Part shown: positions 2,117-56,177 of the stretch, piece by piece
How the letters are laid out: each line of letters opens with the position of its first letter
How positions within the stretch are numbered: the stretch's first letter is position 1
Source: an uncultured archaeon
GTDB lineage: Archaea; Micrarchaeota; Micrarchaeia; Micrarchaeales; CABMGC01
DNA: 64,000 nt
Assembly: GCA_963752955.1 (NCBI GenBank)
Contig: CAVWAD010000005.1
Span: 778-64,777, forward strand
Direction of reading: 5' to 3'
Notes under the pieces: model-generated
What the model saw: only the letters and a program-made list of their open reading frames with translations
Told to the model about the DNA's origin: nothing
The model's database searches: none
Position numbers and translations under genes: made by a program

Positions 2117-3573
2117 GTATCTATTTAGCTCCCCTCTGAACCTCCACTAAATCGCCGCGGGCGAAAAGAATACTATTCCTTCAGTATTTGTATCCTCGGC
2201 GATCTTCTGACTGAGTATGTTACCATAGAGAAGGACATCTACGTTGCACTTTTGAAGAAAGTAGAAAAGGTTCAGGAACTTCAAAGGAACGTGGAAGAAC
2301 TCAAGAACTCTGTAGTCGAACTCCAGAGACGTCTCTGGATATACGAGAATCCGAACATCCCTTCATCGAAGAGGATACTGAAAGAGAAGAAAGACGATGA
2401 GAACCGGCCAGAAGGAAAGAAAGGCGCACCCGAAGGCCATGTTGGTGCAACCAGAGATAAGCCAAAACCGAACCGTTTCATCGACCTCAAACCGAGAGTT
2501 TGTGCGGGGTGCAACAGCCGCAACATCGAGATGACTGGAAAGGAGAAGAAGATCATAGAGGACATCAGGATAGAGAAGGTCGTCACGGAATTCACCCAGT
2601 ACAGATACCACTGCAACGACTGCGGCTGTGACCATGTAACGACGCATCCGGAACTTCCAAAGACGGGAATATTCGGGCCCACGATAACGGGTATCTGGGA
2701 AATGCTGCATTACAAAGGACACGTCCCCTTCGAGTGCCTTTCGCAGATAAGCGGGAACCTCTTCGGGGTGCCAATAACCCAGGGCGGCATGCACAACGCG
2801 ATATACCGAACGGCGCAGATATTCGAACCGACCTTCGAGGAGATAAGACAGCAGATAAGGGAGTCAAATTACGTAAGGTCGGACGAGACGTCGTATCCCT
2901 TCAACGGCCGCAACTGGTGGCTGTGGAACCTGTCGAATCACGACACGTCCCTGGTCCTCTTGAGGGACAGCAGGGGAACAGGAGTATTGAGGGAAGTGTT
3001 CGATGGGGACTTCTCAGGTATATCCAATACCGACTGCTTTTCGGCATATGACTGTTTCGGTTCGGAATCATCGAAGTGCTGGTCGCACCTTCTCGGGTTC
3101 GCGGACAAAGCGGCCGAAGAGGATGCATACGGCAAGAGAATTCGTGAGATGCTGAAAGAGATGTTCGCATACATCAAACAGGTAAAGGAGGACCACCTCG
3201 AAGGCACTCCCGAAGTTATGGATCGCATCGATGAGATGAAGGACAGGATACGTAGGTTGCGCAAGAACAAACGCAGATCTAGGATAACAGAAAGATTGGT
3301 GAAGCGGTTGCAAAAATACATTGACTCGTGGTTCACCTGCCTGGTTTACGACTTCGTGGAACCGACCAACAACGCCTCTGAACGGGACATTCGCAAGAAC
3401 GTAGTTGCACGGAACATATCTGGGCAGCACAGGAGCGTAGTTGGAACGCACTGCAGGGAGATAATGATGTCAACGATACTTACGAAGCAGAAGAACGATG
3501 TAAACGTTTTCGACTTCATACAGAGAGGCATAAGACAGTACAACTCAGCTCCCGTCGGGAGCTAAATAGATAC
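2117..3573 (+). mobile_element. IS66-family (single-ORF, ISBst12-like) insertion sequence, copy 1, 1457 bp
   Basis: Perfect 17-bp terminal IR GTATCTATTTAGCTCCC / GGGAGCTAAATAGATAC. 8-bp TSD ATTAAATT (2109-2116 and 3574-3581). Confidence 0.9.
2252..3565 (+). CDS. IS66-family transposase
   Basis: 437 aa with an N-terminal coiled coil, CxxC...CxxC zinc finger, SDETS and EPTNNASERDIR (IS66 TNN.xER motif). Identical to the ORFs at 23252 and 57371. Confidence 0.9.
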   Translation: MKKVEKVQELQRNVEELKNSVVELQRRLWIYENPNIPSSKRILKEKKDDENRPEGKKGAPEGHVGATRDKPKPNRFIDLKPRVCAGCNSRNIEMTGKEKKIIEDIRIEKVVTEFTQYRYHCNDCGCDHVTTHPELPKTGIFGPTITGIWEMLHYKGHVPFECLSQISGNLFGVPITQGGMHNAIYRTAQIFEPTFEEIRQQIRESNYVRSDETSYPFNGRNWWLWNLSNHDTSLVLLRDSRGTGVLREVFDGDFSGISNTDCFSAYDCFGSESSKCWSHLLGFADKAAEEDAYGKRIREMLKEMFAYIKQVKEDHLEGTPEVMDRIDEMKDRIRRLRKNKRRSRITERLVKRLQKYIDSWFTCLVYDFVEPTNNASERDIRKNVVARNISGQHRSVVGTHCREIMMSTILTKQKNDVNVFDFIQRGIRQYNSAPVGS

Positions 3574-10671: not shown

Positions 10672-11670
10672 GATAAAGTCAATATTTCGTCATCTCTATC
10701 TTTCGTGCTAGATGGATAAGGTCTAAGAGCTTGTTCTTACCAAGAGACAAATTTAGTTCTGCCGCTTCGGCAGGGGTCCTACCACCAAGACTATTGTGCG
10801 GTGTGACATAGTTGTATATGAATTTGCAAAGGGTCAATGTTGTAGATGCGCCTTGGTGCGTCTGGAATACGTTAAGGGCTTCGACTCTTCTGCCAATCTC
10901 TCTATTATGCCGTTCCACTGGATTGTTATTGTGTTCCCGTCCATATTTCTTGCACGCAATCGGAACGCCAAATTTAAGTTCCGTAACCCCATAGAACAGT
11001 TTCTTCCACACAATTTTATAGATGGCAAATTTATCCGAGACGAATGTTATCAGGTGCCTTTTCCCAAAAGGTTTCGTTCGCTCTTTTCGATAGCGTTCCA
11101 ATATCTGGGCATAGCACCAAACCTTTATGACTCTTAGAAAGGCAAGGCAGGCAGCGATTGTCCTATCAACGACAACATCATCCGCAAGGACAAACTTGGT
11201 CTTGTTATCGAGGGCAGTCAACCTAAATTCCCAATGGCCCTTCACTCTTACATATTTTTCGTCGTAATGGATGCGGCCCTTAATCTTTGGAACACCAAAT
11301 CTCGTCTCGGTTTTTTTAAAAGATAGGCATACTTTACCACCCAGTTTCGGATTGTCCACCTTGAAACCTCAACATCGTCATGCTGCGATAGATGTTTTTG
11401 GATCTTTTTCAAGGACGCTCCATCTGCGTATTCGTCTAAGGCACGGACAATATCTTTAGGGTTGAAATGCATCCATTTGAATCCGTCATCAATTACAAAC
11501 CAGGTGTTGCAGTTGTGGCAGAAGAATTTCTGCTTCGCGCCTGAAGTATTGTAGCGCATACCTTTCTTCGCAATATCCTTAGAGCCGCAGTGGTCGCAAA
11601 TAGTCACCCAATCATCCTATGATGATATGGAAACAATAGTATTTATAGATGACGTTTTCTTGACTTTATC
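10672..11670 (-). mobile_element. 999-bp IS (IS6/IS240-like DDE motifs, IS1-like organisation), copy a
   Basis: IR GATAAAGTCAATATTTCGTCATC vs rc GATAAAGTCAAGAAAACGTCATC. 9-bp TSD CCTTTGTTT (10663-10671 and 11671-11679). Confidence 0.9.
10679..11607 (-). CDS. transposase in two overlapping frames (119-aa ZF/HTH ORF and 226-aa DDE ORF) joined by a predicted -1 frameshift at A7 (11311-11317)
   Basis: ORF A has CDHC...CHNC. ORF B has HYDEKYVRVKG, FVSDKFAIY and NNNPVERHNREIGRR. The slippery A AAA AAA C is in the zero frame of ORF A. The predicted fusion is ~309 aa. Confidence 0.8.
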
Positions 11671-46558: not shown

Positions 46559-46629
46559 GCATCGCGAATCGTAGATAGCTATAAATAAATATGATAGTAA
46601 GCATAAATAAATATTCCCGATGGGTTTGG

Positions 46630-49600
46630 ATGAGCGATAGCGACACTTTGCAGCCGAATGAGCCTGGCGATGGCGGAAGCACGACGCCAGGGCCGTCCAG
46701 CCCCGTGCCCGAGGCGCAGCCCTCGCCCGGCGTCACGGATTCCTCCGCGCGCCCGGAGGGGCAGCAATCGCAGCCCTCGCCCGCAGAGCAGCCCTCGCCC
46801 GAACTGATGCTGCCCTCCGGAAAGCCGGGGCTGGCGATGCCGAGACTGCCAAACCCGCGCATGCTGCTGATCATCGCGATCGCCGCGATAGCGGTCATCG
46901 CCGTGGCCTTCGCCGCGCTGCAGCTCTTGCACGCGGGCGCGACCACCTCGACCACCACGGTCTCCGTCTCGACCTCGTCCGCCACCACCACCGTCCAGCA
47001 GGTGATCGCGGGCAACATCGACAACTGCACCACTATAACTTCCCCGGGCACATACTTCCTGGCCCGGAACATAAACACCAGCGCCATCCAGGGCGCCTGC
47101 ATAACGGTCGCGGCGAGCAACGTGAAGCTCATCGGGAACGGCAACAGCGTCACGGGGAGCGGGCCCTACTCCGGCGTCTCTCCGTATTCCTACGGCATAT
47201 TCCTCGACAGGGTCTCCAACGTGACGATAACGGGATTCAGGGTCCTGAGGTTCTCTTACGACGTGTACCTCAACGCATCGCACGGCTCCACGATCTCCGG
47301 CAACAACTTCACCAAGCCCACGATCTCCGGCGTATACCTGCGGGGCTCGATGAACAACACCATCGCGGACAACTACGTCTCCGAATCGGACAGCGTGCAG
47401 GGGGGAATAGGCCTTGGTTCCGGCAGCAACGGCAACAGGGTGCTGAACGACACCGTCTCAGACAACGCTTACCGCGGCATCGTGGTGAACTCGACGGAAA
47501 ACACCTTCTCCGGCGACAAGCTGCTGAGGAACCCAGTCGACCTGGCGTGCGACGACAGCTCGGCCCTCAGGCACGACAACGCCTTCTCGAACTCCACGTG
47601 CTCCACCAACGACTACTGCGAGTTCGCGCAGTGCGCCGTCAACCTGCCGTACAACCTGTCCAGGATAGGCCTCGCCCAGGGAAGCGTGCGCTCATGCGGC
47701 CAGGTATCCTATCCGGGCAGATACTCGCTCGCCGCGGACCTTAACGCTTCGTCGTACATCAACGCCTCACGGGCCTCCGACAGCGCGGCCGCGTGCATAA
47801 GGATAGCCGCGCCCAACGTGAACTTCACGTGCGCCGGGAGGTCGATAAGCAACGCGGGATACGGCATCTACGTCGCATCGTCGTACAACGTCACGGTGTC
47901 GGGCTGCGTGCTCGCCAACAACACGCACGGCATCTACCTGGAAAACACCTTCGGCTCGTACATAAGCAACCTGAGCATCAGCAGGTCGGCGTACGGGCTG
48001 TACCTCCAGAACGCAACCAGCGGACTGGTCGGGAACCTCAACCTGCTGAACAACACCTACGGCGTCTACCTGGACCTGGCGAACGGCGTCACGTTCGACC
48101 TCCTGAGGGCTAGCGGCAACGGGTACGGCGTCTACGCCGCCAGCGGCGGCAGCGACGTGTTCAGGGGCGGGTCCCTGCTGAACAACACAAGGGCCGACCT
48201 GTACTGCAGCGCAAGCACATACAACTCCATCGACAACCTCGTGCAGAGCATGGCCTGCGGCGTGACGGACTGCTCGTGGGCGCCCTCGTGCGCGGAGCAC
48301 ATACTCCCGTCCCTGGCCGCCTACCCCATCGGAAGCTGCAGGGCGATAACCTCGCCGGGGAACTACACGATCACGCAGAACATCCTTGACAGGGGAGGCG
48401 ACTGCTTCGACATCGCCTCCAGCAACGTGGCCCTTAGCTGCGGCGGCCACAGCCTGACGGGCAGCGCGTCGGGAAGCGCCTTCTCGTTCAGCGGCGCGTC
48501 CAACGTCACGATATCGAACTGCACGGTCAGCCAGTTCGCGGTGGGCGTCAACGCCAGCAACTCCAGGAAGGTCAACCTCAATTCCCTGAACATAAGCGAC
48601 GTGGACACCGCGGTGTCGCTCAGCGGGGTCTCCATGGCGAACGTCGCGAACGTGAGGGCGAAGTCCTACTACGGCACGGGCTTCAGCTTCCTGCGGACCA
48701 ACGACAGCACGATAACCCAGGACTACGCGGTCAACGGCGCCAACGGCGCCGACGGCTTCGTTTTCGACAGCGCCACGCGGGACCAGGTGACGTTCAACAA
48801 CGCCGGGCCGAACCCCGGATACGGCTTCTCTCTCTCCAACTTCGCCGACAACCAGTTCTTCAACAACAGCGCCTTCGACAACGTCAACTCCGACTACTAC
48901 TGCTCCCCCTCATCGGCCGGCTTCTACGCGAACCCGGTCGGGATCAACCTCGGCCTCGCGAAGAACGGGTGCAAGTGGCTCGTCGACGTGCCCAAGGTCT
49001 CGACGAGCCCGGGATGCCAGGCGGCGTCATCCGCGGCGGACATCGTGATGACTGAGGACCTGCTGTACCCCTACGGCGGCGCGTGCTTCAGCGTGTACAG
49101 CGAGAAGTCCTCCTCGGGCAACGACACGGTCATAAACTGCAACGGCCACACCGTATACGCGAGCCGCGGAGGGACGTTCGCGAACATAGCCAACGCCAGC
49201 GGAGTGACGGTCGAGAACTGCTACCTCGCCAACTTCACCACTGCGATATTCGCGGGCGGCGTGTACGAGAACCTGGTCAACAACACCGTCCTGAACACCG
49301 GCACCGCGATAAGCCTCGCCAATTCCCATTTCACCAAGGTTGCGCTGAACAAGATGGAGAACGACACTTCGGGGGTCGTGTCCGCGAACACCAACTACGC
49401 CAACATAATAAACAACCTCTTCTACGGCACCTCCAACGCGATCGTCGTCTCCGGCGGCTCGTCGGCGGCCATAGAGAACAATACCGCGAGCCGCGGCGTC
49501 TACGGCATGCGGCTATCCAACACGTCCTCGGCGATACTAATGAACAACCTGCTCCTGAACATGAGCGCAAGCGGCCTGTACTGCACCGGCTCCTCCGCGA

Positions 49601-49698
49601 CCAACAGCGCGACGAACCGCGACTACGGCGGCAACGTGTGCTCGGGAGGCAACCGCAACTGCACCTGGATGGTCTCCCCAGGATGCGCGCCGCAGTGA
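46630..49698 (+). CDS. large surface protein with right-handed beta-helix (PbH1/NosD-like) repeats, N-terminal membrane anchor
   Basis: The ORF opens at 46591; MSDSD at 46630 is the likely start. Features are a Pro/Ser-rich head, the TM segment LLIIAIAAIAVIAVAFAALQLL, repeated N.(Y/A)G(I/V)Y(L/V) beta-helix turns, and very many N-x-S/T sequons. Confidence 0.8.
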   Translation: MSDSDTLQPNEPGDGGSTTPGPSSPVPEAQPSPGVTDSSARPEGQQSQPSPAEQPSPELMLPSGKPGLAMPRLPNPRMLLIIAIAAIAVIAVAFAALQLLHAGATTSTTTVSVSTSSATTTVQQVIAGNIDNCTTITSPGTYFLARNINTSAIQGACITVAASNVKLIGNGNSVTGSGPYSGVSPYSYGIFLDRVSNVTITGFRVLRFSYDVYLNASHGSTISGNNFTKPTISGVYLRGSMNNTIADNYVSESDSVQGGIGLGSGSNGNRVLNDTVSDNAYRGIVVNSTENTFSGDKLLRNPVDLACDDSSALRHDNAFSNSTCSTNDYCEFAQCAVNLPYNLSRIGLAQGSVRSCGQVSYPGRYSLAADLNASSYINASRASDSAAACIRIAAPNVNFTCAGRSISNAGYGIYVASSYNVTVSGCVLANNTHGIYLENTFGSYISNLSISRSAYGLYLQNATSGLVGNLNLLNNTYGVYLDLANGVTFDLLRASGNGYGVYAASGGSDVFRGGSLLNNTRADLYCSASTYNSIDNLVQSMACGVTDCSWAPSCAEHILPSLAAYPIGSCRAITSPGNYTITQNILDRGGDCFDIASSNVALSCGGHSLTGSASGSAFSFSGASNVTISNCTVSQFAVGVNASNSRKVNLNSLNISDVDTAVSLSGVSMANVANVRAKSYYGTGFSFLRTNDSTITQDYAVNGANGADGFVFDSATRDQVTFNNAGPNPGYGFSLSNFADNQFFNNSAFDNVNSDYYCSPSSAGFYANPVGINLGLAKNGCKWLVDVPKVSTSPGCQAASSAADIVMTEDLLYPYGGACFSVYSEKSSSGNDTVINCNGHTVYASRGGTFANIANASGVTVENCYLANFTTAIFAGGVYENLVNNTVLNTGTAISLANSHFTKVALNKMENDTSGVVSANTNYANIINNLFYGTSNAIVVSGGSSAAIENNTASRGVYGMRLSNTSSAILMNNLLLNMSASGLYCTGSSATNSATNRDYGGNVCSGGNRNCTWMVSPGCAPQ

Positions 49699-50775: not shown

Positions 50776-51339
50776 CTATCTGAACATCGCCGGCTCGTCG
50801 GCCCTCCTGTACTCCCTTATCTCGCCCTCCTCGAACCAGAGGCCGATCTCCTTCTCGGCCGTCTCCAGGCTGTCCGACGTATGGATGAGATTGTGCACCG
50901 GCCTCTTCTGCTCGTCGGCGAGCTGGTACGAGTCGATCGCGTACATCCCCCTCAACGTGGACGGATCCGCCTTAGAGGGCGCGGTGCTTCCCACGATCTT
51001 CCGCACGATCGACAGGGCCTCGTTGCCCTCCACAACCATCGCGACCACCGGCCCCATGGTCAGGTAGTCCATCAGGTAGCCCCTGATCTTGCGGCCTATC
51101 TGCTCCGCGGTGTCGCTTACCTTTATCCCCTTGGCCTCGTACGAGGCTATCGATTTCTTCCCAACGTCCTCGAGCCATGCCACGTCGTCAACGTAGTGCT
51201 TCGCGGCCAGCTCCTTGTCGGCCATGGTCATCTTCATCGCGGTGATCCTCAGCCCCGCATCCTCGAACCTGCCGATTATCTTTCCCATCAGCGCCCTCTG
51301 CACGCCGTCAGGCTTTATCAAGACGAATGTCTTTTCCAT
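50776..51339 (-). CDS. ndk: nucleoside-diphosphate kinase (with internal insertion)
   Basis: TFVLIKPDGVQR...GPVVAMVVEG...NLIHTSDS. An extra ~35-aa segment follows KHY. Confidence 0.85.
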   Translation of the reverse strand: MEKTFVLIKPDGVQRALMGKIIGRFEDAGLRITAMKMTMADKELAAKHYVDDVAWLEDVGKKSIASYEAKGIKVSDTAEQIGRKIRGYLMDYLTMGPVVAMVVEGNEALSIVRKIVGSTAPSKADPSTLRGMYAIDSYQLADEQKRPVHNLIHTSDSLETAEKEIGLWFEEGEIREYRRADEPAMFR

Positions 51340-51394
51340 GCGAATACCCGATTAACTGAACGACAAATTCGTTCGAATATACTGCGCGCTTGAG

Positions 51395-51404
51395 TTTTAA
51401 ATAG
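51395..51404 (-). promoter_or_regulatory. BRE/TATA-like box upstream of ndk
   Basis: The minus strand reads CGACAAGCTATTTAAAAC. A near-identical CGAAAAGCTATTTAAAAC lies upstream of dcd. Confidence 0.4.
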
Positions 51405-51434
51405 CTTGTCGTATTTAGAGGGCCGGCTTCACAC

Positions 51435-52665
51435 GGCTTCATCCCATAAAGAATGACGCCGCGAAGGCGGTTGTCCGTCGATGAGAAAGAATTGTCTGCA
51501 TGTTCTGGGCCGTATGTGGCATCGATTTTCTGAAAAAGGCGTAGATTTCGACGGAAAACATCGGCCTAGAACTCATGTGACTTCGCTTCCGCTAACTGTT
51601 GATGACCTTCAGGTCCTTTTTACCGGTCGCACTTTACCCAGAATGGCAACCCTAGTCGCCTTGCCGTTGCGTCGTAGAGGCGCTGTTTTATGTTGAAGGC
51701 GATCACCCTCAGCGCGATCGCCATGTTTCGCGTCTTCCGATTCACAGCCCTTACGCAACTTCCATACCGTCTCTTTACCGCGGAGAAGATGCTTTCTATC
51801 ACCGAACGCGCATGATAAATCGCGTCGTACAGCTCCTTCTTTTTCCTCGCGAATACGACCATCTCCTTCCATGCCTGCGAACCTTTCGCCCTGCTTTTTA
51901 CTCCATCCTTAAGGGCGAAGAACGGCCTCCCGTTCTTGCTGGCAACTACGTTGCAGTTGTCTCGGCCGAGGTATCCTGCATCTCCCAGCACCTGGAGAAG
52001 TTCGTCGATGTCGCGCAATAGGAACCCCAGTTGCGGCGAATCGTTTCGTTTCCACGACGTTATCTTGTATCCTACGATAATGTTTCTTCGCAGGGCCACA
52101 GATATGTGCAATTTCGCGTTGTCCCTCCTTTTGTTGACCCTCCCAATTCGGATGTCGTACCACGAACTGCTGACCATCAGTCGTATCCCTGTCGAATCCA
52201 CCGCAACGGTCATTCCCTTGTTGACAAACTTCCTAACGAGAAGTTTATTGAACTTCCTGATGTATTTTTGATCAAGTCGTTGCATTCCTCGATGTAATGC
52301 GCTACGACTCGGGAGGTTCGGGGCCTTCAACACCTGTTGAAGGTATCCCTTCCGTTTTTCCACCTCCATGCCATCATAAGTCAGGTTCAGGGAGACCATT
52401 AGGAGGCACAGCACGAATACTGTTCTGCTGTCGTGTATCGGGGGACTTCCCCTCGTCTTCTTCTCCCAAGGGGGAGGAAGCCTATTGGCGAATCTCTTCG
52501 CGGTCTTTGCGGTCAATACCGCTATGTTTCTATCGACTCTCGTTACCACCTTCGGGTTTGCCCTCCTTTTGGGCTTTCCCATAATGTGGCATCGACGGAA
52601 AGGAACAAAATCTTACCGCCCGAAAAGGTCAGGATTAGCGTCGGCATGAATTATGGGATGAAGCC
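51435..52665 (-). mobile_element. IS4/IS5-superfamily insertion sequence, 1231 bp
   Basis: IR GGCTTCATCCCATAAAGAATGACGCCG vs rc GGCTTCATCCCATAATTCATGCCGACG. 9-bp TSD GCTTCACAC (51426-51434 and 52666-52674). Confidence 0.9.
51620..52582 (-). CDS. DDE transposase (IS4/IS5, YREK motif)
   Basis: AVDSTGIRL, GDAGYLGRDN and YHARSVIESIFSAVKRRYG (Y-2-R-3-E-6-K). Confidence 0.85.
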   Translation of the reverse strand: MGKPKRRANPKVVTRVDRNIAVLTAKTAKRFANRLPPPWEKKTRGSPPIHDSRTVFVLCLLMVSLNLTYDGMEVEKRKGYLQQVLKAPNLPSRSALHRGMQRLDQKYIRKFNKLLVRKFVNKGMTVAVDSTGIRLMVSSSWYDIRIGRVNKRRDNAKLHISVALRRNIIVGYKITSWKRNDSPQLGFLLRDIDELLQVLGDAGYLGRDNCNVVASKNGRPFFALKDGVKSRAKGSQAWKEMVVFARKKKELYDAIYHARSVIESIFSAVKRRYGSCVRAVNRKTRNMAIALRVIAFNIKQRLYDATARRLGLPFWVKCDR

Positions 52666-52721
52666 GCTTCACACGTATCTTTAAATACAGTCAGACGCAC
52701 AATTACTCTGGGGAATACGGT

Positions 52722-53963
52722 ATGCCTATGCTTTGCCATGAGGATCTTGTGGACCACCTGAGAGACGGAAGTCTAGAAATAGATGGTATTAAACAGGGAT
52801 CAGTCCAAGAAAGTTCAATTCAAGTGCGTCTATCAGATCTGTTCATAAATAGATCCACTCATGAGGAGACACGAGTGGGAAAGGGTGAGCCATACATTAT
52901 AAGACCAGGGGGATCTGTCGATGCCTTTACACGTGAAAGCGTAAGAAATCTACCTACTGATCTAGGGGTCTATGAAAATAGATTCGGCGTAAATGAGGAG
53001 CGCATAATAGAGGTCGATTTTGTAAATAAATCTAGCTTGGCAAGACTAGGACTTCAGGTCTGTCGTAAGTTTTATCGTCAGCATGAAGGCGATGAGCAGA
53101 TTCCCTTAACCATTCTCAACCTTAACCCAAAGCACCCAGTGGCAGTATTTTCAGAGATGCCCGTAGGCGCGTTAGTGTTCATGTTCGATCTCAAGCCCCG
53201 TATTGCCCTAGCCCCGCTGCCCAATGTGGGTCTACATGTACCTAAAATCCCATGGACCCGCTGCCATTTTACGTATGAACTTTACGGAGCAGAGCTCTTA
53301 GATTATGTGAACGCCGAAAAGGTCATAGCTCCCTTTGACAAGAAGATGGTTGGATTTGAGTCAATCAGACTGACCCTGGGTAACGTGTTTCTAGTACAGG
53401 GGCCCTCGAAGGTTCCGTACCTAAATCCGAGGTGTGACCTTGGAGAAACGATGGAGAAAGTAACTGTGAAATCTGGTGGCACCTTTTCTCTCGAGCCCAA
53501 AGGATTTGCTCTGGGTTCAACAGAGCAACGGATAAAAATGCCGAACAATCTAGTTGGTCACATAGATCAGTATGATTTAGACGTAACGAATCGCGAAGTG
53601 GTTCTGCCCTGGCTACGGGACGTATCATCAAATCCTGCTAATCTTGTCTGGCCTGGGTTTGATGGAAACCTTACCTTGGAATTTTTCAATCCGACAAATC
53701 GTACAATAAGACTGCGCCCCGGTAGCGTGTGCAATGACCTATTGCTTATGCATACTTCACAATCGACTAGGTTTGTTGTAAGTACGAAATATGGTGGTTC
53801 CGCTGAACCACTACCCTGCAGAATGCACAAGGAGTATGAGAAGCCGCCTTTAGTAGCTGAACAGAGAACTCCGTTAGAAGTCAAAGCCGATAAGCTAGGG
53901 CTGCTACTAAGAGCTGAAGATTCCAAAACGCCGCCGACTAACTTACGCAAAGTAATGGCGTAA
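52722..53963 (+). CDS. tandem dCTP deaminase/dUTPase-fold protein (two Dcd-like halves, 413 aa)
   Basis: Half 1 has IQVRLSDLF, YIIRPGGSVDAFTRESV, NKSSLARLGLQV and PLTILNLNP. Half 2 has IRLTLGNVF, FSLEPKGFALGSTEQRIKMP, VWPGFDGNLTLEFFNPTNRTIRLRPG and STKYGG. Compared by eye with E. coli Dcd and with the local dcd. Confidence 0.6.
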   Translation: MPMLCHEDLVDHLRDGSLEIDGIKQGSVQESSIQVRLSDLFINRSTHEETRVGKGEPYIIRPGGSVDAFTRESVRNLPTDLGVYENRFGVNEERIIEVDFVNKSSLARLGLQVCRKFYRQHEGDEQIPLTILNLNPKHPVAVFSEMPVGALVFMFDLKPRIALAPLPNVGLHVPKIPWTRCHFTYELYGAELLDYVNAEKVIAPFDKKMVGFESIRLTLGNVFLVQGPSKVPYLNPRCDLGETMEKVTVKSGGTFSLEPKGFALGSTEQRIKMPNNLVGHIDQYDLDVTNREVVLPWLRDVSSNPANLVWPGFDGNLTLEFFNPTNRTIRLRPGSVCNDLLLMHTSQSTRFVVSTKYGGSAEPLPCRMHKEYEKPPLVAEQRTPLEVKADKLGLLLRAEDSKTPPTNLRKVMA

Positions 53964-54000
53964 TCAATTATCTGCCAAGAGTCCTAGTCGCGTTACCTTC

Positions 54001-54573
54001 CTAATTCTGTTTCTCAAGCTTCTCCGCAGCCACCCTTCCGCCCTTCCACTGCCCTTCGTACGCCCTGTGCAGGTCGCCGACCACCTGCATGAAGACGACG
54101 TTCGCTATCCGGGCGCCCAGGTCCAGCTCGAATTTCGATTTCCCCATGTTCGCCATCCCGAACGTGAGCTCCCCCGAATATCCGGGGTCGGTCTTGGTCG
54201 CCATCAGGTGGACGCCGCACCTCTGCAGGGTGCTCCGCGGGTAGACGTGGATCGTGAGGAACGTGGGTTTGCTTCCTTCCTCGGTGACTATCTTTTCCGA
54301 GGGCAGGCTGACGCTCTCCATGGTCTTGACGAGCACGAACTCCCCGGGCAGGAGGGTAAACTTCCTGTCCCCCTTATTTACGTCCGCGACCTTCTCTATG
54401 TCGGGAGTCTTCCTGTCCTCGACACCGAGATAGCCGTCGCCCCTTATGAGGTATATCTCGCCGGCGCGTATGTCGAAGCCAGTGCCCTCCGGCGAGTACT
54501 CCCTCTCGGCCAGATTGCTGATGAGCTTGTATTTTTCGTTTAGCTCCAGAATCCTCTTGGCTGACACTATCAA
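54001..54573 (-). CDS. dcd: dCTP deaminase / dUTPase-family enzyme
   Basis: FDIRAGEIY, LLPGEFVLVKTMESVSLP, PRSTLQRCGV and TDPGYSGELTFGMANMG. Confidence 0.8.
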   Translation of the reverse strand: MIVSAKRILELNEKYKLISNLAEREYSPEGTGFDIRAGEIYLIRGDGYLGVEDRKTPDIEKVADVNKGDRKFTLLPGEFVLVKTMESVSLPSEKIVTEEGSKPTFLTIHVYPRSTLQRCGVHLMATKTDPGYSGELTFGMANMGKSKFELDLGARIANVVFMQVVGDLHRAYEGQWKGGRVAAEKLEKQN

Positions 54574-54639: not shown

Positions 54640-56177
54640 GTTATTATCTTGACTTCGCCAAATAGGCCGCGAAGTATCTGACAGTTGTCTCCAACCCAAT
54701 TTGCCAAAACAATTTCTACCAGCGCAGGTTTAGGTTTTTCGTACCGTATTTGCGCAGGAAACCTCCGAAAATCTCCGAAATCGGGGGCGAAATGTTGCTC
54801 ACCACTGCGAATTTGAACCGTCCTGGAGGGTAAACGAAGGTCACTGTCAAATTCGTCAGGTATTTTTTGAGGAGCTTCACGTTCTTGACGAGGGGATTCT
54901 TGCACGGAAGCAGTGTCAAACTGACCATGGCTTCCGCGAGGAAGGCGATGAGGATCGCGCCGATTATCGCGTATTTAGTCCAGTGCCTGACCGGCCTGAG
55001 TTCGATCCCCTCCTTCATATTGCGCACGAGTTTCTCCGCGGCGTCCCTCTGCTTGTATATCCGCAGTATCTCTTCGGGAGTCGCGTCGACGGTGCTCTCT
55101 AGGATGAAGAACCCCTCTATCCCGTTTATGTAGGGGTTCTCGACGCATCCCAGTGCAATCTGGAGTTCGGGATAAAGTTCGACCCATCCCTTCTCACAGG
55201 GGTAAGTCTCCACCGCCTTGCGCTTTCCCGCTTTCTTCGCGAGTTTGTTACCCTTCTCCTTTCGCCTTTCGAACTTCCTGTTCTTGTTGCGTATCTGCGT
55301 CTCGAGAAGCGTCCTTGAGAAGTAGATGTATTGGAATTCGCCACCCTCCTTCACCTTCACAGCAAGGTAGGTATTGCCTCCGATGTTTATCGTCGATTTC
55401 TCCGCGGACTTGAACAGGGCGATGTATCTGCGATAGTTTTTGACGTTCTTCTGCTTCAGCGTCAGGTAGTTGAACCCGTCGAAGACAATCCGCGCCTTGT
55501 TCTCCTTCGTGTTCGCGCCGCAGTCGAATATCAGCAGGGAACCCTTCTGCAGTATCCTCTTGACGACGTTGTACGTCTCGGTAAAGTGCTTCTTGTCCAA
55601 CACGTTGCCCTTCTGTATCGTCAGCGCGGTGGGAATACCGTTTATCCCCGTCGCTATCCCGAAGGTCACCTGTCTCTTGTCAGGGCGGTGGTCCCTGGAA
55701 TAGCCCAATGCGCCCATCTCTGCCTTCTTCCCCTCGAAGTATATCGACGACCAGTCGATGTTCTGGTCCTTGTCGGCAAGGTTCCTCGCATTGAGGAAAT
55801 CCTGGTACTTTTCGATTATTGCTGGCGCAAGCAACCCGACCTTCTCGACGGTTCTGTACAGCGATCTCTCCGAGACGTACTCCGCGCCGAGAAGCGCACA
55901 GGTGTCTTCAGAGGAGGTGGGAATTACCTGGTGTATAGACGTCGCGAAAGTCAGGCGGTTGTTTAGGAGCAATTTCAACCGCCCGACGTATGCGGGACTC
56001 ATGATCCCTCCGAAAACCGAGGAGATCAGACCGAAATCATTTTCTACTTTGTCGATGATAGCTATACCGCCCAAGGGCGTCGTTGTATTTTTCATGTTAA
56101 TCGATGAAAATACCGCCCTTGGCATAAAAATAGTTTTCGTCAGTTCACGAGAGAAGTGGCGAGGTTAAGTTATAATA
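54640..56177 (-). mobile_element. IS1634-family insertion sequence (boundaries approximate)
   Basis: Contains the transposase. The only candidate IR found is weak: AGTTATTATCTTGACTTCGCCA (54640-54661) vs rc of 56156-56177 (15/22). No TSD identified. Confidence 0.45.
54716..56125 (-). CDS. IS1634-family DDE transposase
   Basis: GYSRDHRPDKRQV signature, FDCGANTKEN and RQRDAAEKLVRNMK. Confidence 0.85.
   Translation of the reverse strand: MPRAVFSSINMKNTTTPLGGIAIIDKVENDFGLISSVFGGIMSPAYVGRLKLLLNNRLTFATSIHQVIPTSSEDTCALLGAEYVSERSLYRTVEKVGLLAPAIIEKYQDFLNARNLADKDQNIDWSSIYFEGKKAEMGALGYSRDHRPDKRQVTFGIATGINGIPTALTIQKGNVLDKKHFTETYNVVKRILQKGSLLIFDCGANTKENKARIVFDGFNYLTLKQKNVKNYRRYIALFKSAEKSTINIGGNTYLAVKVKEGGEFQYIYFSRTLLETQIRNKNRKFERRKEKGNKLAKKAGKRKAVETYPCEKGWVELYPELQIALGCVENPYINGIEGFFILESTVDATPEEILRIYKQRDAAEKLVRNMKEGIELRPVRHWTKYAIIGAILIAFLAEAMVSLTLLPCKNPLVKNVKLLKKYLTNLTVTFVYPPGRFKFAVVSNISPPISEIFGGFLRKYGTKNLNLRW

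Follow-up and report, generated by a model that had tools for sequence, protein, structure and literature searches.

A single open reading frame in an uncultured archaeon of the Micrarchaeota encodes two domains of the dCTP deaminase (Dcd) fold in one chain, and the two halves have kept different parts of the active-site motifs. The frame lies in the window, which is the whole stretch of 64,000 nucleotides that was analysed. The same design is found in a family of long deaminases represented by PDB 2R9Q. The preferred reading, which has about an even chance of being correct, is that the protein is a horizontally acquired chain whose two Dcd domains would pack side by side and form one composite nucleotide site. 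The catalytic competence of such a site is uncertain. The gene and its parts are as follows.

52680-52687, plus strand: archaeal TATA-box-like element, TTTAAATA, ending 34 nt upstream of the ATG, read from the sequence
52722-53963, stop included, plus strand: tandem Dcd-like open reading frame, 413 amino acids, a single frame without internal stop
52722-53201, plus strand: half 1, a diverged Dcd-fold domain, residues 1 to about 160, from PF22769, a custom Dcd profile, and a model with fold search
53025-53054, plus strand: motif II of half 1, N102-K-S104-S105-L-A-R108-L-G110-L111, from the profile alignment
53061-53120, plus strand: degenerate motif III region of half 1, residues 114-133, with pLDDT <50 in the model
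53202-53279, plus strand: inter-domain linker, residues about 161-186, no profile match
53280-53840, plus strand: half 2, a well-conserved Dcd-fold domain, residues about 187-373, from PF22769, the Dcd profile and a PDB match
53568-53636, plus strand: replacement of motif II in half 2, Q283-P305, from the profile alignment
53637-53690, plus strand: pyrimidine pocket and catalytic Glu of half 2, namely A306, W310, P311-G-F-D-G315, T318-L-E320 and N323
53775-53801, plus strand: C-terminal closing segment of half 2, F352 to K356-Y357-G-G-S360, aligned with Dcd Y171..K-Y179-x-G-Q182
53841-53960, plus strand: C-terminal extension of 40 residues, no homology detected

The first-pass annotation had described one 413-residue chain with two Dcd/dUTPase-fold units, and this description holds. 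PF22769 (DCD) matches the protein in two stretches and gives the whole protein 79.3 bits (cut-off 27). With TIGR02274, the NCBIfam equivalog for dCTP deaminase, the protein scores 90.7 bits, below the cut-off of 92.8. An alternative start at 52728 gives a 411-residue form (P0001).

A tandem protein of this kind might also be imagined to arise from two adjacent genes or from a chimeric assembly, if a stop, a frameshift or a misassembly had been overlooked. The halves are indeed dissimilar, with no BLASTP similarity between them (E = 3), and half 1 is weakly Dcd-like when taken alone. However, a check of the frame for stops and frameshifts found none, and two Logan contigs, assembled from separate runs (ERR10755942 and ERR11523656), encode the identical protein and carry the same Dcd-like gene beside the tandem gene. 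Their DNA is 100% and 99.94% identical to the window, and the junction between the halves is the same in all three assemblies. The sole difference among the three is a synonymous C to T change at 53060, a third codon position. Because the frame is free of stops and the same sequence occurs in independent assemblies, the tandem frame is not the product of a frameshift or of faulty assembly. GC content is also equal across the halves, as is GC3 (0.41 and 0.44), and the junction has no start-codon or promoter signal. A joining of two separate genes is therefore extremely improbable.

Half 1 is recognizable as a Dcd domain over nearly its whole length. Residues 6-154 align with positions 4-151 of the 153 in PF22769. 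Taken alone, half 1 scores 23.7 bits with this model, short of the cut-off of 27, and it covers positions 2-152 of the custom Dcd profile. Pairwise matches to the PDB are marginal (E 0.08-0.45). An AlphaFold2 model of half 1 has a mean pLDDT of 61, and the top results of a fold search with it were Dcd and DCD-DUT structures (TM about 0.5, probability 1.00). This support is partly circular, because the alignment used for modelling consisted of Dcd-like homologues.

Half 1 had been said to retain an SSLARLGL-type motif and to lack the DPG...LE segment, and both statements are borne out. The string K-S104-S105-L-A-R108-L-G110-L is present, and S104, S105, R108 and G110 correspond to E. coli Dcd S111, S112, R115 and G117. 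Where Dcd has D-P-G, half 1 has Y118, R119 and Q120, and Thr130 stands at the position of the catalytic Glu. The motif-I Asp position (D34) is occupied by Q34. The linker takes the place of the C-terminal closing tail that would be expected in a free-standing Dcd.

Half 2 matches PF22769 from residue 189 to 343 with 61.8 bits. Among solved structures, it comes closest to M. tuberculosis Dcd:dut (2qxx, E 6.6e-12), to which it aligns over nearly its full length, and MAFFT aligns all 120 homologues used for the full-length alignment to this half. A full-length AlphaFold2 model of the tandem protein, built without an alignment, has a pLDDT of 28. The catalytic-Glu context ascribed to half 2 was found as T318-L-E320. 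The position of the SSLARLG motif is likewise filled by unrelated sequence, as had been proposed, with 23 residues there against 15 in the profile (gkSSlgRlGLlvhvt). The position of the DPG Asp in this half is occupied by Trp310. The motif-I Asp position is R216, and the E95 position is Q269.

The distribution of motifs was compared with a profile of 92 canonical Dcd. Half 1 retains 5/6 conserved motif-II columns and 3/13 motif-III/Glu columns, and half 2 retains 1/6 and 9/13, respectively; the statistics of this split are modest (Fisher p 0.04 and 0.06). S104, S105, R108 and G110 are found only in half 1, and A306, P311, G312, G315, T318, L319, E320 and Y357 only in half 2. As a result, the Ser-Arg-Glu catalytic set occurs exactly once per chain, and the equivalents of Ser111, Arg115 and Glu138, which define a canonical Dcd, are never together in one domain.

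The idea that the halves hold complementary motif sets thus stands for motif II in half 1 and for the Glu and pocket in half 2, but it fails for two acidic positions. Neither half has the motif-I Asp, and in half 2 Trp310 replaces the motif-III Asp. In canonical Dcd, D34 is D or E in 90/92 sequences (98%), compared with Q34 and R216 in the tandem protein. D128 is D or E in 85/92 (92%) and W in none, compared with Y118 and W310. By contrast, KSSLARLGL and PGFDGNLTLEFFN are near-perfect consensus strings in halves that are overall 37-39% identical to the majority residue, which argues that selection acts on both half-sites.

The active site of E. coli Dcd is reportedly composed of two subunits, a description attributed to Johansson et al. 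in 2005 (J Biol Chem 280:3051). Throughout the superfamily, motif III on one subunit lies opposite motifs I, II and IV on its neighbour (PMC12524310, PMC8961515). Because of this pairing, the observed motif split is what would be expected if one site spans both halves. A pseudo-hexamer with like halves stacked would leave no complete site, and the motif pattern argues for halves that lie side by side, with one site per chain.

In canonical Dcd, the motif-II side binds the phosphate chain and supplies the Ser and Arg of the Ser-Arg-Glu set. In the side-by-side arrangement, the two halves, both jelly-rolls of the dUTPase superfamily, would pack like adjacent subunits of a Dcd trimer, with the composite site at their interface. 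Half 1 would provide the motif-II side (K103, S104, S105 and R108). Half 2 would provide the pyrimidine pocket (A306, P311-G-F, G315 and T318-L) and Glu320 as general base, and its C-terminal segment (F352 and K356-Y357) would shut over the site. The two reciprocal half-sites would have decayed.

The most likely chemistry of such a site is predicted to be the hydrolytic deamination of dCTP, or of a related cytosine nucleotide, to a uracil nucleotide. This product would supply the adjacent probable Dcd-fold dUTPase, which has no catalytic Glu. With Trp310 in place of the motif-III Asp, DCD-DUT-type hydrolysis is unlikely. In dUTPase, data on D83N and Asp90 indicate that the motif-III Asp positions the hydrolytic water (PMC5519681), and by analogy the Asp of DCD-DUT may have the same role. 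Neither half of the tandem protein has it: half 1 carries Y118 at this position, and half 2 W310.

Several observations were weighed for and against the composite site. Counted for it were the intact TATA-like element and the Glu-less Dcd-fold neighbour with ndk beyond. Counted against it were the missing D34 and D128 equivalents, the status of the protein as a singleton, the full-length pLDDT of 28, the score of half 1 alone under the Pfam cut-off and the TIGR02274 score below its cut-off.

The surroundings of the gene record how it arrived. The features concerned are the following.

50776-51339, minus strand: ndk (nucleoside diphosphate kinase)
51340-54000: insert of 2.66 kb that splits the dcd-ndk pair, from comparison with relatives
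51434-52666 (51427-52673 with direct repeats), minus strand: IS5-like element, with inverted repeats at 51434-51465 and 52635-52666
51620-52582, minus strand: DDE transposase of the IS5-like element
51427-51433 and 52667-52673: 7-bp direct repeat CTTCACA flanking the IS, read from the sequence
54001-54573, minus strand: host Dcd-fold gene, convergent to the tandem gene

The tandem gene was acquired horizontally. It has a GC content of 0.46 and a GC3 of 0.43, compared with a GC3 of 0.82-0.91 in the host nosD-like, ndk and Dcd-like genes, which agrees with its earlier description as less GC-rich than its neighbours. Since GC3 is alike in both halves, the fusion is older than the transfer. In relatives, ndk lies directly downstream of the Dcd-like gene, with a dcd-ndk spacer of 12-14 bp (L008 and L011). 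The insert that separates the pair here consists of about 1.42 kb with the tandem gene alone, plus the nested IS. The IS insertion point is 49 bp upstream of the tandem gene start, and the IS entered a foreign segment that was already in place. The TTTAAATA element is still present downstream of the IS insertion, and its sequence suggests that it may serve as promoter of the tandem gene.

Two other origins of the gene were considered and rejected. It is not a passenger of the IS5-like element, of which the inverted repeats and the 7-bp target duplication enclose the transposase only (51434-52666). Nor is it a recent local duplication of the neighbouring gene: the halves are no nearer to the neighbour than to any Dcd, GC3 is 0.43 against 0.82, and half 2 has a Glu that is missing from the neighbour's whole family.

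The tandem gene had been placed between an IS and a canonical dcd. The IS5-like element does lie upstream and a convergent Dcd-like gene downstream, but this neighbour is not a canonical dcd. Its protein has S114, R118 and D129, with Gly139 at the catalytic-Glu position, and in all 120 of its homologues this position is A, G, S or T. On this sequence pattern, the host gene probably encodes a Dcd-fold dUTPase. Because they are without the catalytic Glu, the “dCTP deaminase” of the host and many DPANN/CPR homologues are probably mis-annotated dUTPases. It follows that, on this stretch, the deaminase-type Glu is carried by the foreign tandem gene only.

The presence of this neighbour bears on another possible assembly. 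Like halves could come together, with three chains stacked as a ring of N-halves upon a ring of C-halves, or the tandem protein could co-assemble with the host Dcd-fold protein. In either case there would be no complete intrachain site, and instead of being a deaminase in its own right, the protein would regulate through nucleotide binding, or would modify or poison the host enzyme. The fold usually requires three subunits around a threefold axis (PMC4827122), and the chain has no third domain for the vacant position. The host Dcd-fold gene is immediately adjacent, and its product has motif II and the DPG Asp without the Glu, so that in a mixed interface host motif II could in principle be matched with the Glu pocket of half 2. 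Documented roles of dUTPase-fold proteins also include some that are not enzymatic (PMC8961515, PMC12524310). However, rings of like halves would leave both retained half-sites partnerless, and their strong conservation would be hard to explain. The tandem gene is also foreign, convergent to the host gene and not co-transcribed with it, and the host's relatives do without it. Assemblies of these kinds are considered unlikely.

No tandem relatives were found by a k-mer/HMMER search of 5.8 billion clusters, by full phmmer over 1.84 billion cluster representatives, or by scanning GTDB genomes, IMG/VR and JGI metagenomes with peptide patterns. The searches returned the protein itself, single-domain Dcd matching half 2, and chance enterobacterial dcd. 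Long matches of 372-891 aa were examined as candidate tandem Dcd and rejected: each is an intein-containing Dcd, a Dcd extended by unrelated sequence, or, in one case, a spurious protein of Ig repeats.

As for a role in defence, there was no match to PADLOC families at E <= 1, and there were no partner genes in the insert. Among PHROGs, the tandem protein matches the generic dCTP deaminase family only. By tblastn against phages, half 2 matches Dcd of haloarchaeal-virus and actinophage origin at 24-30%. An apparent match to “two dcd genes” in phage PIS 136 was set aside, being due to a mis-annotated HTH gene.

The lack of relatives in all the collections searched would suit a decaying or non-catalytic relic, that is, a foreign gene without selection for catalysis or an enzymatic role in its host, perhaps neutral cargo that is being lost. 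Its unameliorated composition (GC3 0.43), the IS-rich region with an IS 49 bp upstream of the start, and the loss of the D34 and D128 equivalents in both halves and of E95 in half 2 would all fit such a gene. On the other hand, the frame of 413 codons and the TATA-like element are both intact, and the same protein occurs in three assemblies whose lone difference is synonymous. The half-sites are near-perfect consensus amid high divergence, which is unexpected under neutral decay. A relic is thus rather unlikely, although it deserves serious consideration.

A further, distinctly unlikely reading is that the protein is an independently evolved “monomeric Dcd” carried by mobile DNA, which would be a third origin of the two-domain single site. 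Its substrate would not be dCTP but, for instance, a cytosine ribonucleotide or a modified cytosine nucleotide; alternatively, it would sense nucleotides or modify the probable Dcd-fold dUTPase of the host, and would not serve as a housekeeping deaminase. The site in such a protein would be remodelled, with Trp in place of the deoxyribose-/water-binding Asp and the motif-I Asp gone.

The closest parallel to the tandem protein is the long two-domain “2'-deoxycytidine 5'-triphosphate deaminase” family, defined by PF06559 (DCD_N) and PF22569 (DCD_C). Examples are PDB 2R9Q from Agrobacterium tumefaciens (370 aa) and a Sinorhizobium protein (L016:1471-2580). The family comprises at least 8000 clusters, with Rhizobiaceae best among the matches listed. 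Its structure has been solved, and no published description of the family was found in the literature searched. Like the tandem protein, a long DCD has two Dcd-fold domains in a chain of about 370-410 residues. Its N-half has kept motif II (K-S-S-x-G-R) and lost the DPG Asp and C-terminal tail, as in half 1. Its C-half has lost motif II and kept A124, P-G-F, G133, L-E138 and the Y179 tail, as in half 2, and reads DPGF + Glu + Y..YQ.Q.

The two proteins nevertheless differ in several ways. Long DCD retains the motif-I Asp, a Glu in each half and, in the C-half, the DPG Asp, all three of which the tandem protein has lost, and it forms a large family, whereas the tandem protein is a lone sequence in an archaeal setting. 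Neither the whole tandem protein nor either half matches PF06559 or PF22569 at E <= 1, although ordinary single-domain Dcd matches these families and a genuine long DCD scores 268 and 308 bits. Comparison of the tandem protein with a long-DCD alignment by hhalign gave a probability of 0.7%, in what is a weak test (Neff 1.3), and BLASTP an E of 2.8. The N-terminal part of half 2 resembles canonical Dcd (76 bits, profile positions 7-99), whereas that of DCD_C is unalignable. This difference points to an independent fusion, and the tandem protein is probably not descended from the fusion that gave rise to long DCD.

A second parallel is provided by the monomeric dUTPases of herpesviruses (EBV BLLF3, PDB 2BSY; PRV, 8ZWQ). 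They consist of a duplicated jelly-roll with one motif set across two domains (PMC8961515, PMC12524310). Their single site lies at the interface, and the domains behave as two subunits of a trimer (PMC12524310, PMC8961515, PMC4827122). Monomeric dUTPases of this type have been reported from herpesviruses only (PMC12524310), in contrast to the archaeal genome that holds the tandem gene. They also belong to the dUTPase branch and the tandem protein to the Dcd branch; it has no PF00692 dUTPase match at E <= 1 and no P-loop motif V. The order of motifs in the herpesvirus enzymes is III, I, II, IV, V, with motif III N-terminal, whereas in the tandem protein motif II is N-terminal and motif III C-terminal.

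If the composite-site model is true, the dUTPase superfamily followed the same evolutionary route at least three times, in herpesvirus dUTPases, in long DCD of the 2R9Q type and in this archaeal orphan. On this route, two subunits are fused, and complementary decay of the interfaces then leaves one site. Both Dcd cases have the same polarity: the N-terminal half carries motif II, and the C-terminal half the pocket and closing tail. This shared polarity would then hold a general lesson on how active sites built at interfaces constrain gene fusion. The tandem protein also offers a functional hypothesis for the large 2R9Q family. The weight of the finding is limited, as it rests on one sequence without relatives.

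Other relatives of the fold have complete domains. Homotrimeric Dcd and DCD-DUT (PF22769, TIGR02274; E. coli 1XS1, M. tuberculosis 2QXX, M. jannaschii 1OGH) share the fold of the tandem protein but carry the full residue set in each domain of about 190 residues, giving three sites per trimer. In the tandem protein, Ser, Arg and Glu are spread over two incomplete domains, with at most one site per chain. Linked domains are also known from the covalent pseudo-heterotrimeric dUTPase of Drosophila virilis and from engineered covalent trimers of human dUTPase (PMC12524310, PMC4827122). These have three near-identical domains with full motifs and three sites, in contrast to two diverged domains with complementary losses. 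A fused pair with such losses is no novelty in this fold: long DCD and the herpesvirus dUTPases already display it, and the tandem protein is an unusual variant of this known two-domain split design rather than a new kind of enzyme.

The tandem gene at 52722-53963 (+) is one 413-codon frame with no internal stops; the database form of its protein (P0001) starts two codons further downstream. The identical protein is found on two short contigs, independently assembled from runs ERR10755942 and ERR11523656, and on both the gene adjoins the same Dcd-like gene as in the window. At the DNA level these contigs match the window at 100% and 99.94% identity, the sole difference being a synonymous C to T change at 53060, in a third codon position. 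The recurrence of an identical protein in two independent assemblies, with no stop in the frame, rules out a frameshift, a missed stop codon and a chimeric assembly. The chance that the ORF is an artefact, and not truly one gene, is minute, and the first-pass annotation was right to read a tandem protein instead of two adjacent genes.

That annotation also saw two Dcd-fold units in the chain. PF22769, the general dCTP-deaminase-like model of Pfam, does match the protein twice. The N-terminal half 1 (residues 6-154) covers nearly the whole model, though scanned alone it reaches 23.7 bits against a cut-off of 27; the C-terminal half 2 (residues 189-343) scores 61.8 bits. With the NCBIfam equivalog TIGR02274 the protein obtains 90.7 bits, slightly under the cut-off of 92.8. 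The closest solved relative of half 2 is the Dcd:dut of M. tuberculosis (2qxx, E 6.6e-12). Half 1 alone gives marginal, collinear pairwise matches to the Dcd of E. coli and M. tuberculosis (E 0.08-0.45), and BLASTP detects no similarity between the two halves (E = 3). For half 1 an AlphaFold2 model was made from an alignment in which it was joined by 116 other sequences: half 2, the product of the neighbouring gene, and 114 Dcd-like homologues of the latter. Its mean pLDDT is a middling 61, with 70-80 in the core and less than 50 at residues 118-140, and the top structures in a fold search are Dcd and DCD-DUT (TM about 0.5). The model is supportive of a Dcd fold, though partly circular, since the alignment consists of Dcd-like homologues.

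Both halves were mapped onto a profile of 92 canonical single-domain Dcd, comprising matches from a search of 1.84 billion representatives and E. coli Dcd. The numbering and segments of the latter were confirmed by comparison.

Active-site motifs in the two halves of the tandem protein, with conserved profile columns kept
Motif II, half 1: N102-K-S104-S105-L-A-R108-L-G110-L111; 5/6 columns
Motif II, half 2: 23 unrelated residues (283-305) in its place; 1/6 columns
Motif III and Glu, half 1: Y118-R119-Q120 for Asp128-Pro-Gly, Thr130 for Glu138; 3/13 columns
Motif III and Glu, half 2: A306, P311-G-F-D-G315, T318-L-E320, N323; 9/13 columns
C-terminal closing segment, half 1: absent, linker instead
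C-terminal closing segment, half 2: present, K356-Y357

On this mapping there is exactly one Ser-Arg-Glu set per chain, divided between the halves. Counted by columns, the asymmetry has only modest significance (Fisher p = 0.04 and 0.06). The kept strings are near-perfect consensus, and the rest of the halves are 37-39% identical to the majority residue; near-consensus strings in such diverged halves make it look as if both half-sites are under selection. Other conserved residues are missing. Both halves have lost the motif-I Asp (D34; Q34 and R216 in its place), a position that is D or E in 98% of the 92 canonical Dcd. In half 2, Trp310 takes the place of the “DPG” Asp, a position that among the same 92 holds D or E in 92% and W in none; E95 is replaced by Q269 in half 2. 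Half 1 had been described as keeping motif II without the DPG segment, which agrees with the column counts. The description of half 2 stands for the catalytic-Glu context (E320) and the replaced motif II, and fails for the DPG Asp. Complementary losses are likewise found in part: motif II survives only in half 1 and the Glu, pocket and tail only in half 2, but the motif-I Asp is lost from both.

Motif II of Dcd (SSxxRxG) is the counterpart of dUTPase motif II, and DPGxxG...TLE is that of dUTPase motif III, including its beta-hairpin pocket. The E. coli Dcd site is reportedly made from two subunits only. In the dUTPase superfamily, three active sites lie in clefts between subunits (PMC4827122), and in some members the C-terminal segment and motif III of the same subunit act together (PMC12524310, PMC8961515). 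Given the motif correspondence, the observed split is expected if the two halves lie side by side, as neighbouring subunits would. They would jointly form one complete site, with the motif-II side from half 1 and the pocket, Glu and tail from half 2, and the two reciprocal half-sites would have decayed. A “pseudo-hexamer” of stacked rings, each made of like halves, fits less well, because both conserved half-sites would be left partnerless.

The likely chemistry of such a composite site would be cytosine-nucleotide deamination via Ser104, Arg108 and Glu320. In dUTPase an Asp positions the hydrolytic water, and the D83N mutant is inactive (PMC5519681); since this Asp is Trp in the tandem protein, DCD-DUT-type hydrolysis is unlikely. 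The loss of both conserved Asp, as read from the sequence, puts efficiency or substrate in real doubt. A composite-site protein that at the least binds nucleotides is judged an even bet. A non-functional relic, to be weighed with the missing Asp residues on one side and the near-consensus strings on the other, is distinctly less probable. An assembly-dependent or regulatory role is somewhat less probable again.

The neighbouring gene (54001-54573, -) had been called the canonical dcd, a label that must be withdrawn. Its product keeps S114, R118 and D129-P-G, but has Gly139 at the position of the catalytic Glu138, and A, G, S or T stands at that position in all 120 homologues retrieved. Many of these homologues come from genomes of DPANN and CPR, where they bear the annotation deoxycytidine triphosphate deaminase. 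Its best PDB matches include the Thermococcus dUTPases 9ln0 and 8y1w, with Met at the Glu position, and it lies under the cut-offs of TIGR02274 and of the archaeal dUTPase model NF002598. The neighbour is most likely a Dcd-fold dUTPase, and its gene family is probably widely mis-annotated. In the 64-kb window, no Dcd-fold domain except half 2 of the tandem protein has a deaminase-type Glu.

Relatives carry homologues of the neighbour that are 86-89% identical, on contigs of 853 kb and 159 kb. The gene order there is aIF5B, the Dcd-like gene, ndk, carbonic anhydrase, an Fe-S assembly protein and a NosD-like surface protein. The gap from the Dcd-like gene to ndk is 12-14 bp (L008:10001-11151 and L011:10001-11149, the relatives' loci), and the pair is a likely operon. 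GatD/GatE on the same contigs identify the organism as an archaeon; the names attached to remoter homologues of the Dcd-like protein come from Micrarchaeales, Woesearchaeota, Nanoarchaeota and candidate-phylum bacteria. Homology between the DNA of the window and that of the relatives breaks off at 51339 and restarts at about 53995-54002, so a 2.66-kb insert splits the pair.

Contents of the insert
51434-52666: IS5-like element with 32-nt terminal inverted repeats, the first layer of the insert
51620-52582: DDE transposase of this element
Flanking 51434-52666: 7-bp direct repeat CTTCACA
52680-52687: TTTAAATA element, left intact by the IS, ending 34 nt upstream of the tandem ATG
Remainder, about 1.42 kb around the IS5-like element: the tandem gene as sole content

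The tandem gene lies, as first noted, between an IS and the Dcd-like gene, its start codon 55 bp from the end of the IS5-like element. It is also lower in GC than its neighbours: its GC3 is 0.43 (halves 0.41 and 0.44) against 0.82-0.91 in flanking host genes. This difference, alike in both halves, indicates a foreign gene, recently acquired and fused before arrival. Also within the insert, on the minus strand at 51395-51403 and 56 nt upstream of ndk, is a TATA-like TATTTAAAA, a candidate promoter that might now drive ndk.

The 10 kb surrounding the tandem gene are crowded with IS copies, and the window as a whole carries many. Three identical IS66-family copies lie at 2252-3565, 23252-24565 and 57371-58684, and IS6-family (IS240-type) copies at 10679-11359, 21645-22325, 58772-59452 and 60225-60905, with an inverted pair around 58.8-60.9 kb. 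An IS4-like element (54716-56125) lies directly upstream of the Dcd-like gene, where synteny with the relatives (aIF5B, GatD/E) is broken. Between two IS elements, a 356-aa ORF (56145-57218, -) has a GC3 of 0.51, a foreign composition. It has no Pfam match; its weak similarities are to a plant prephenate/arogenate dehydrogenase (5t9e, E 3e-4) and a single PHROG family whose function is unknown. The NosD/beta-helix repeat protein (46591-49698, +, 1035 aa), probably a surface protein of the archaeon, holds its position in the relatives; its N-terminal region is rich in Pro and Ser, and N-x-S/T sequons are numerous.

No relative of the tandem protein was found in any collection searched. The 324 significant matches among the 1.84 billion representatives are all to half 2 only, at 66.5 bits or less. 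Several canonical Dcd proteins from that search (P0004, P0045, P0096, P0119, P0120 and P0145) contain inteins, inserted at profile positions of about 101-113, inside or right beside motif II.

The two-domain split design is already known for the Dcd fold. Its precedent is the long DCD family, of at least 8000 clusters, which consists of DCD_N (PF06559) and DCD_C (PF22569), both weakly matched by ordinary Dcd. A Dcd profile finds its structure, PDB 2R9Q (A. tumefaciens, 370 aa), matching two stretches. An example is a close homologue from a Sinorhizobium sp. K101 replicon (L016:1471-2580, NZ_CP104131.1), with E 5e-209 to 2R9Q and 268 and 308 bits to PF06559 and PF22569. In its N-half, motif I (D43), K-S113-S114-T-G-R117 and a Glu are kept, Asp-Pro has become Pro-Ala, and the tail is absent. 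Its C-half is without motif II and keeps A293, D297-P-G-F, L-E315 and Y347...Y355-Q-A-Q. The polarity of the split is thus the same as in the tandem protein. No paper mentioning 2R9Q was found in the literature searched, and the complementary split and one-site-per-chain logic of this family appear to be undescribed.

The tandem protein may be an extremely diverged member of the family, whose split polarity it shares. It matches neither PF06559 nor PF22569 at E <= 1, however, and comparison with the family was negative by BLASTP and by hhalign, the latter a weak test. The N-terminal stretch of half 2 resembles canonical Dcd, while the corresponding part of DCD_C fails to align. These results argue for a separate fusion event, with convergence on the split seen in the family.

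Herpesvirus monomeric dUTPases likewise combine two domains with a single motif set and a single site, but their motif order is opposite and they lie outside the Dcd branch (PMC8961515, PMC12524310). The covalent pseudo-heterotrimer of D. virilis is a further functional analogue outside that branch. For specialists, a single orphan sequence offers, besides a likely mis-annotated neighbour family, what is probably the third independent instance of two fused subunits yielding one site.
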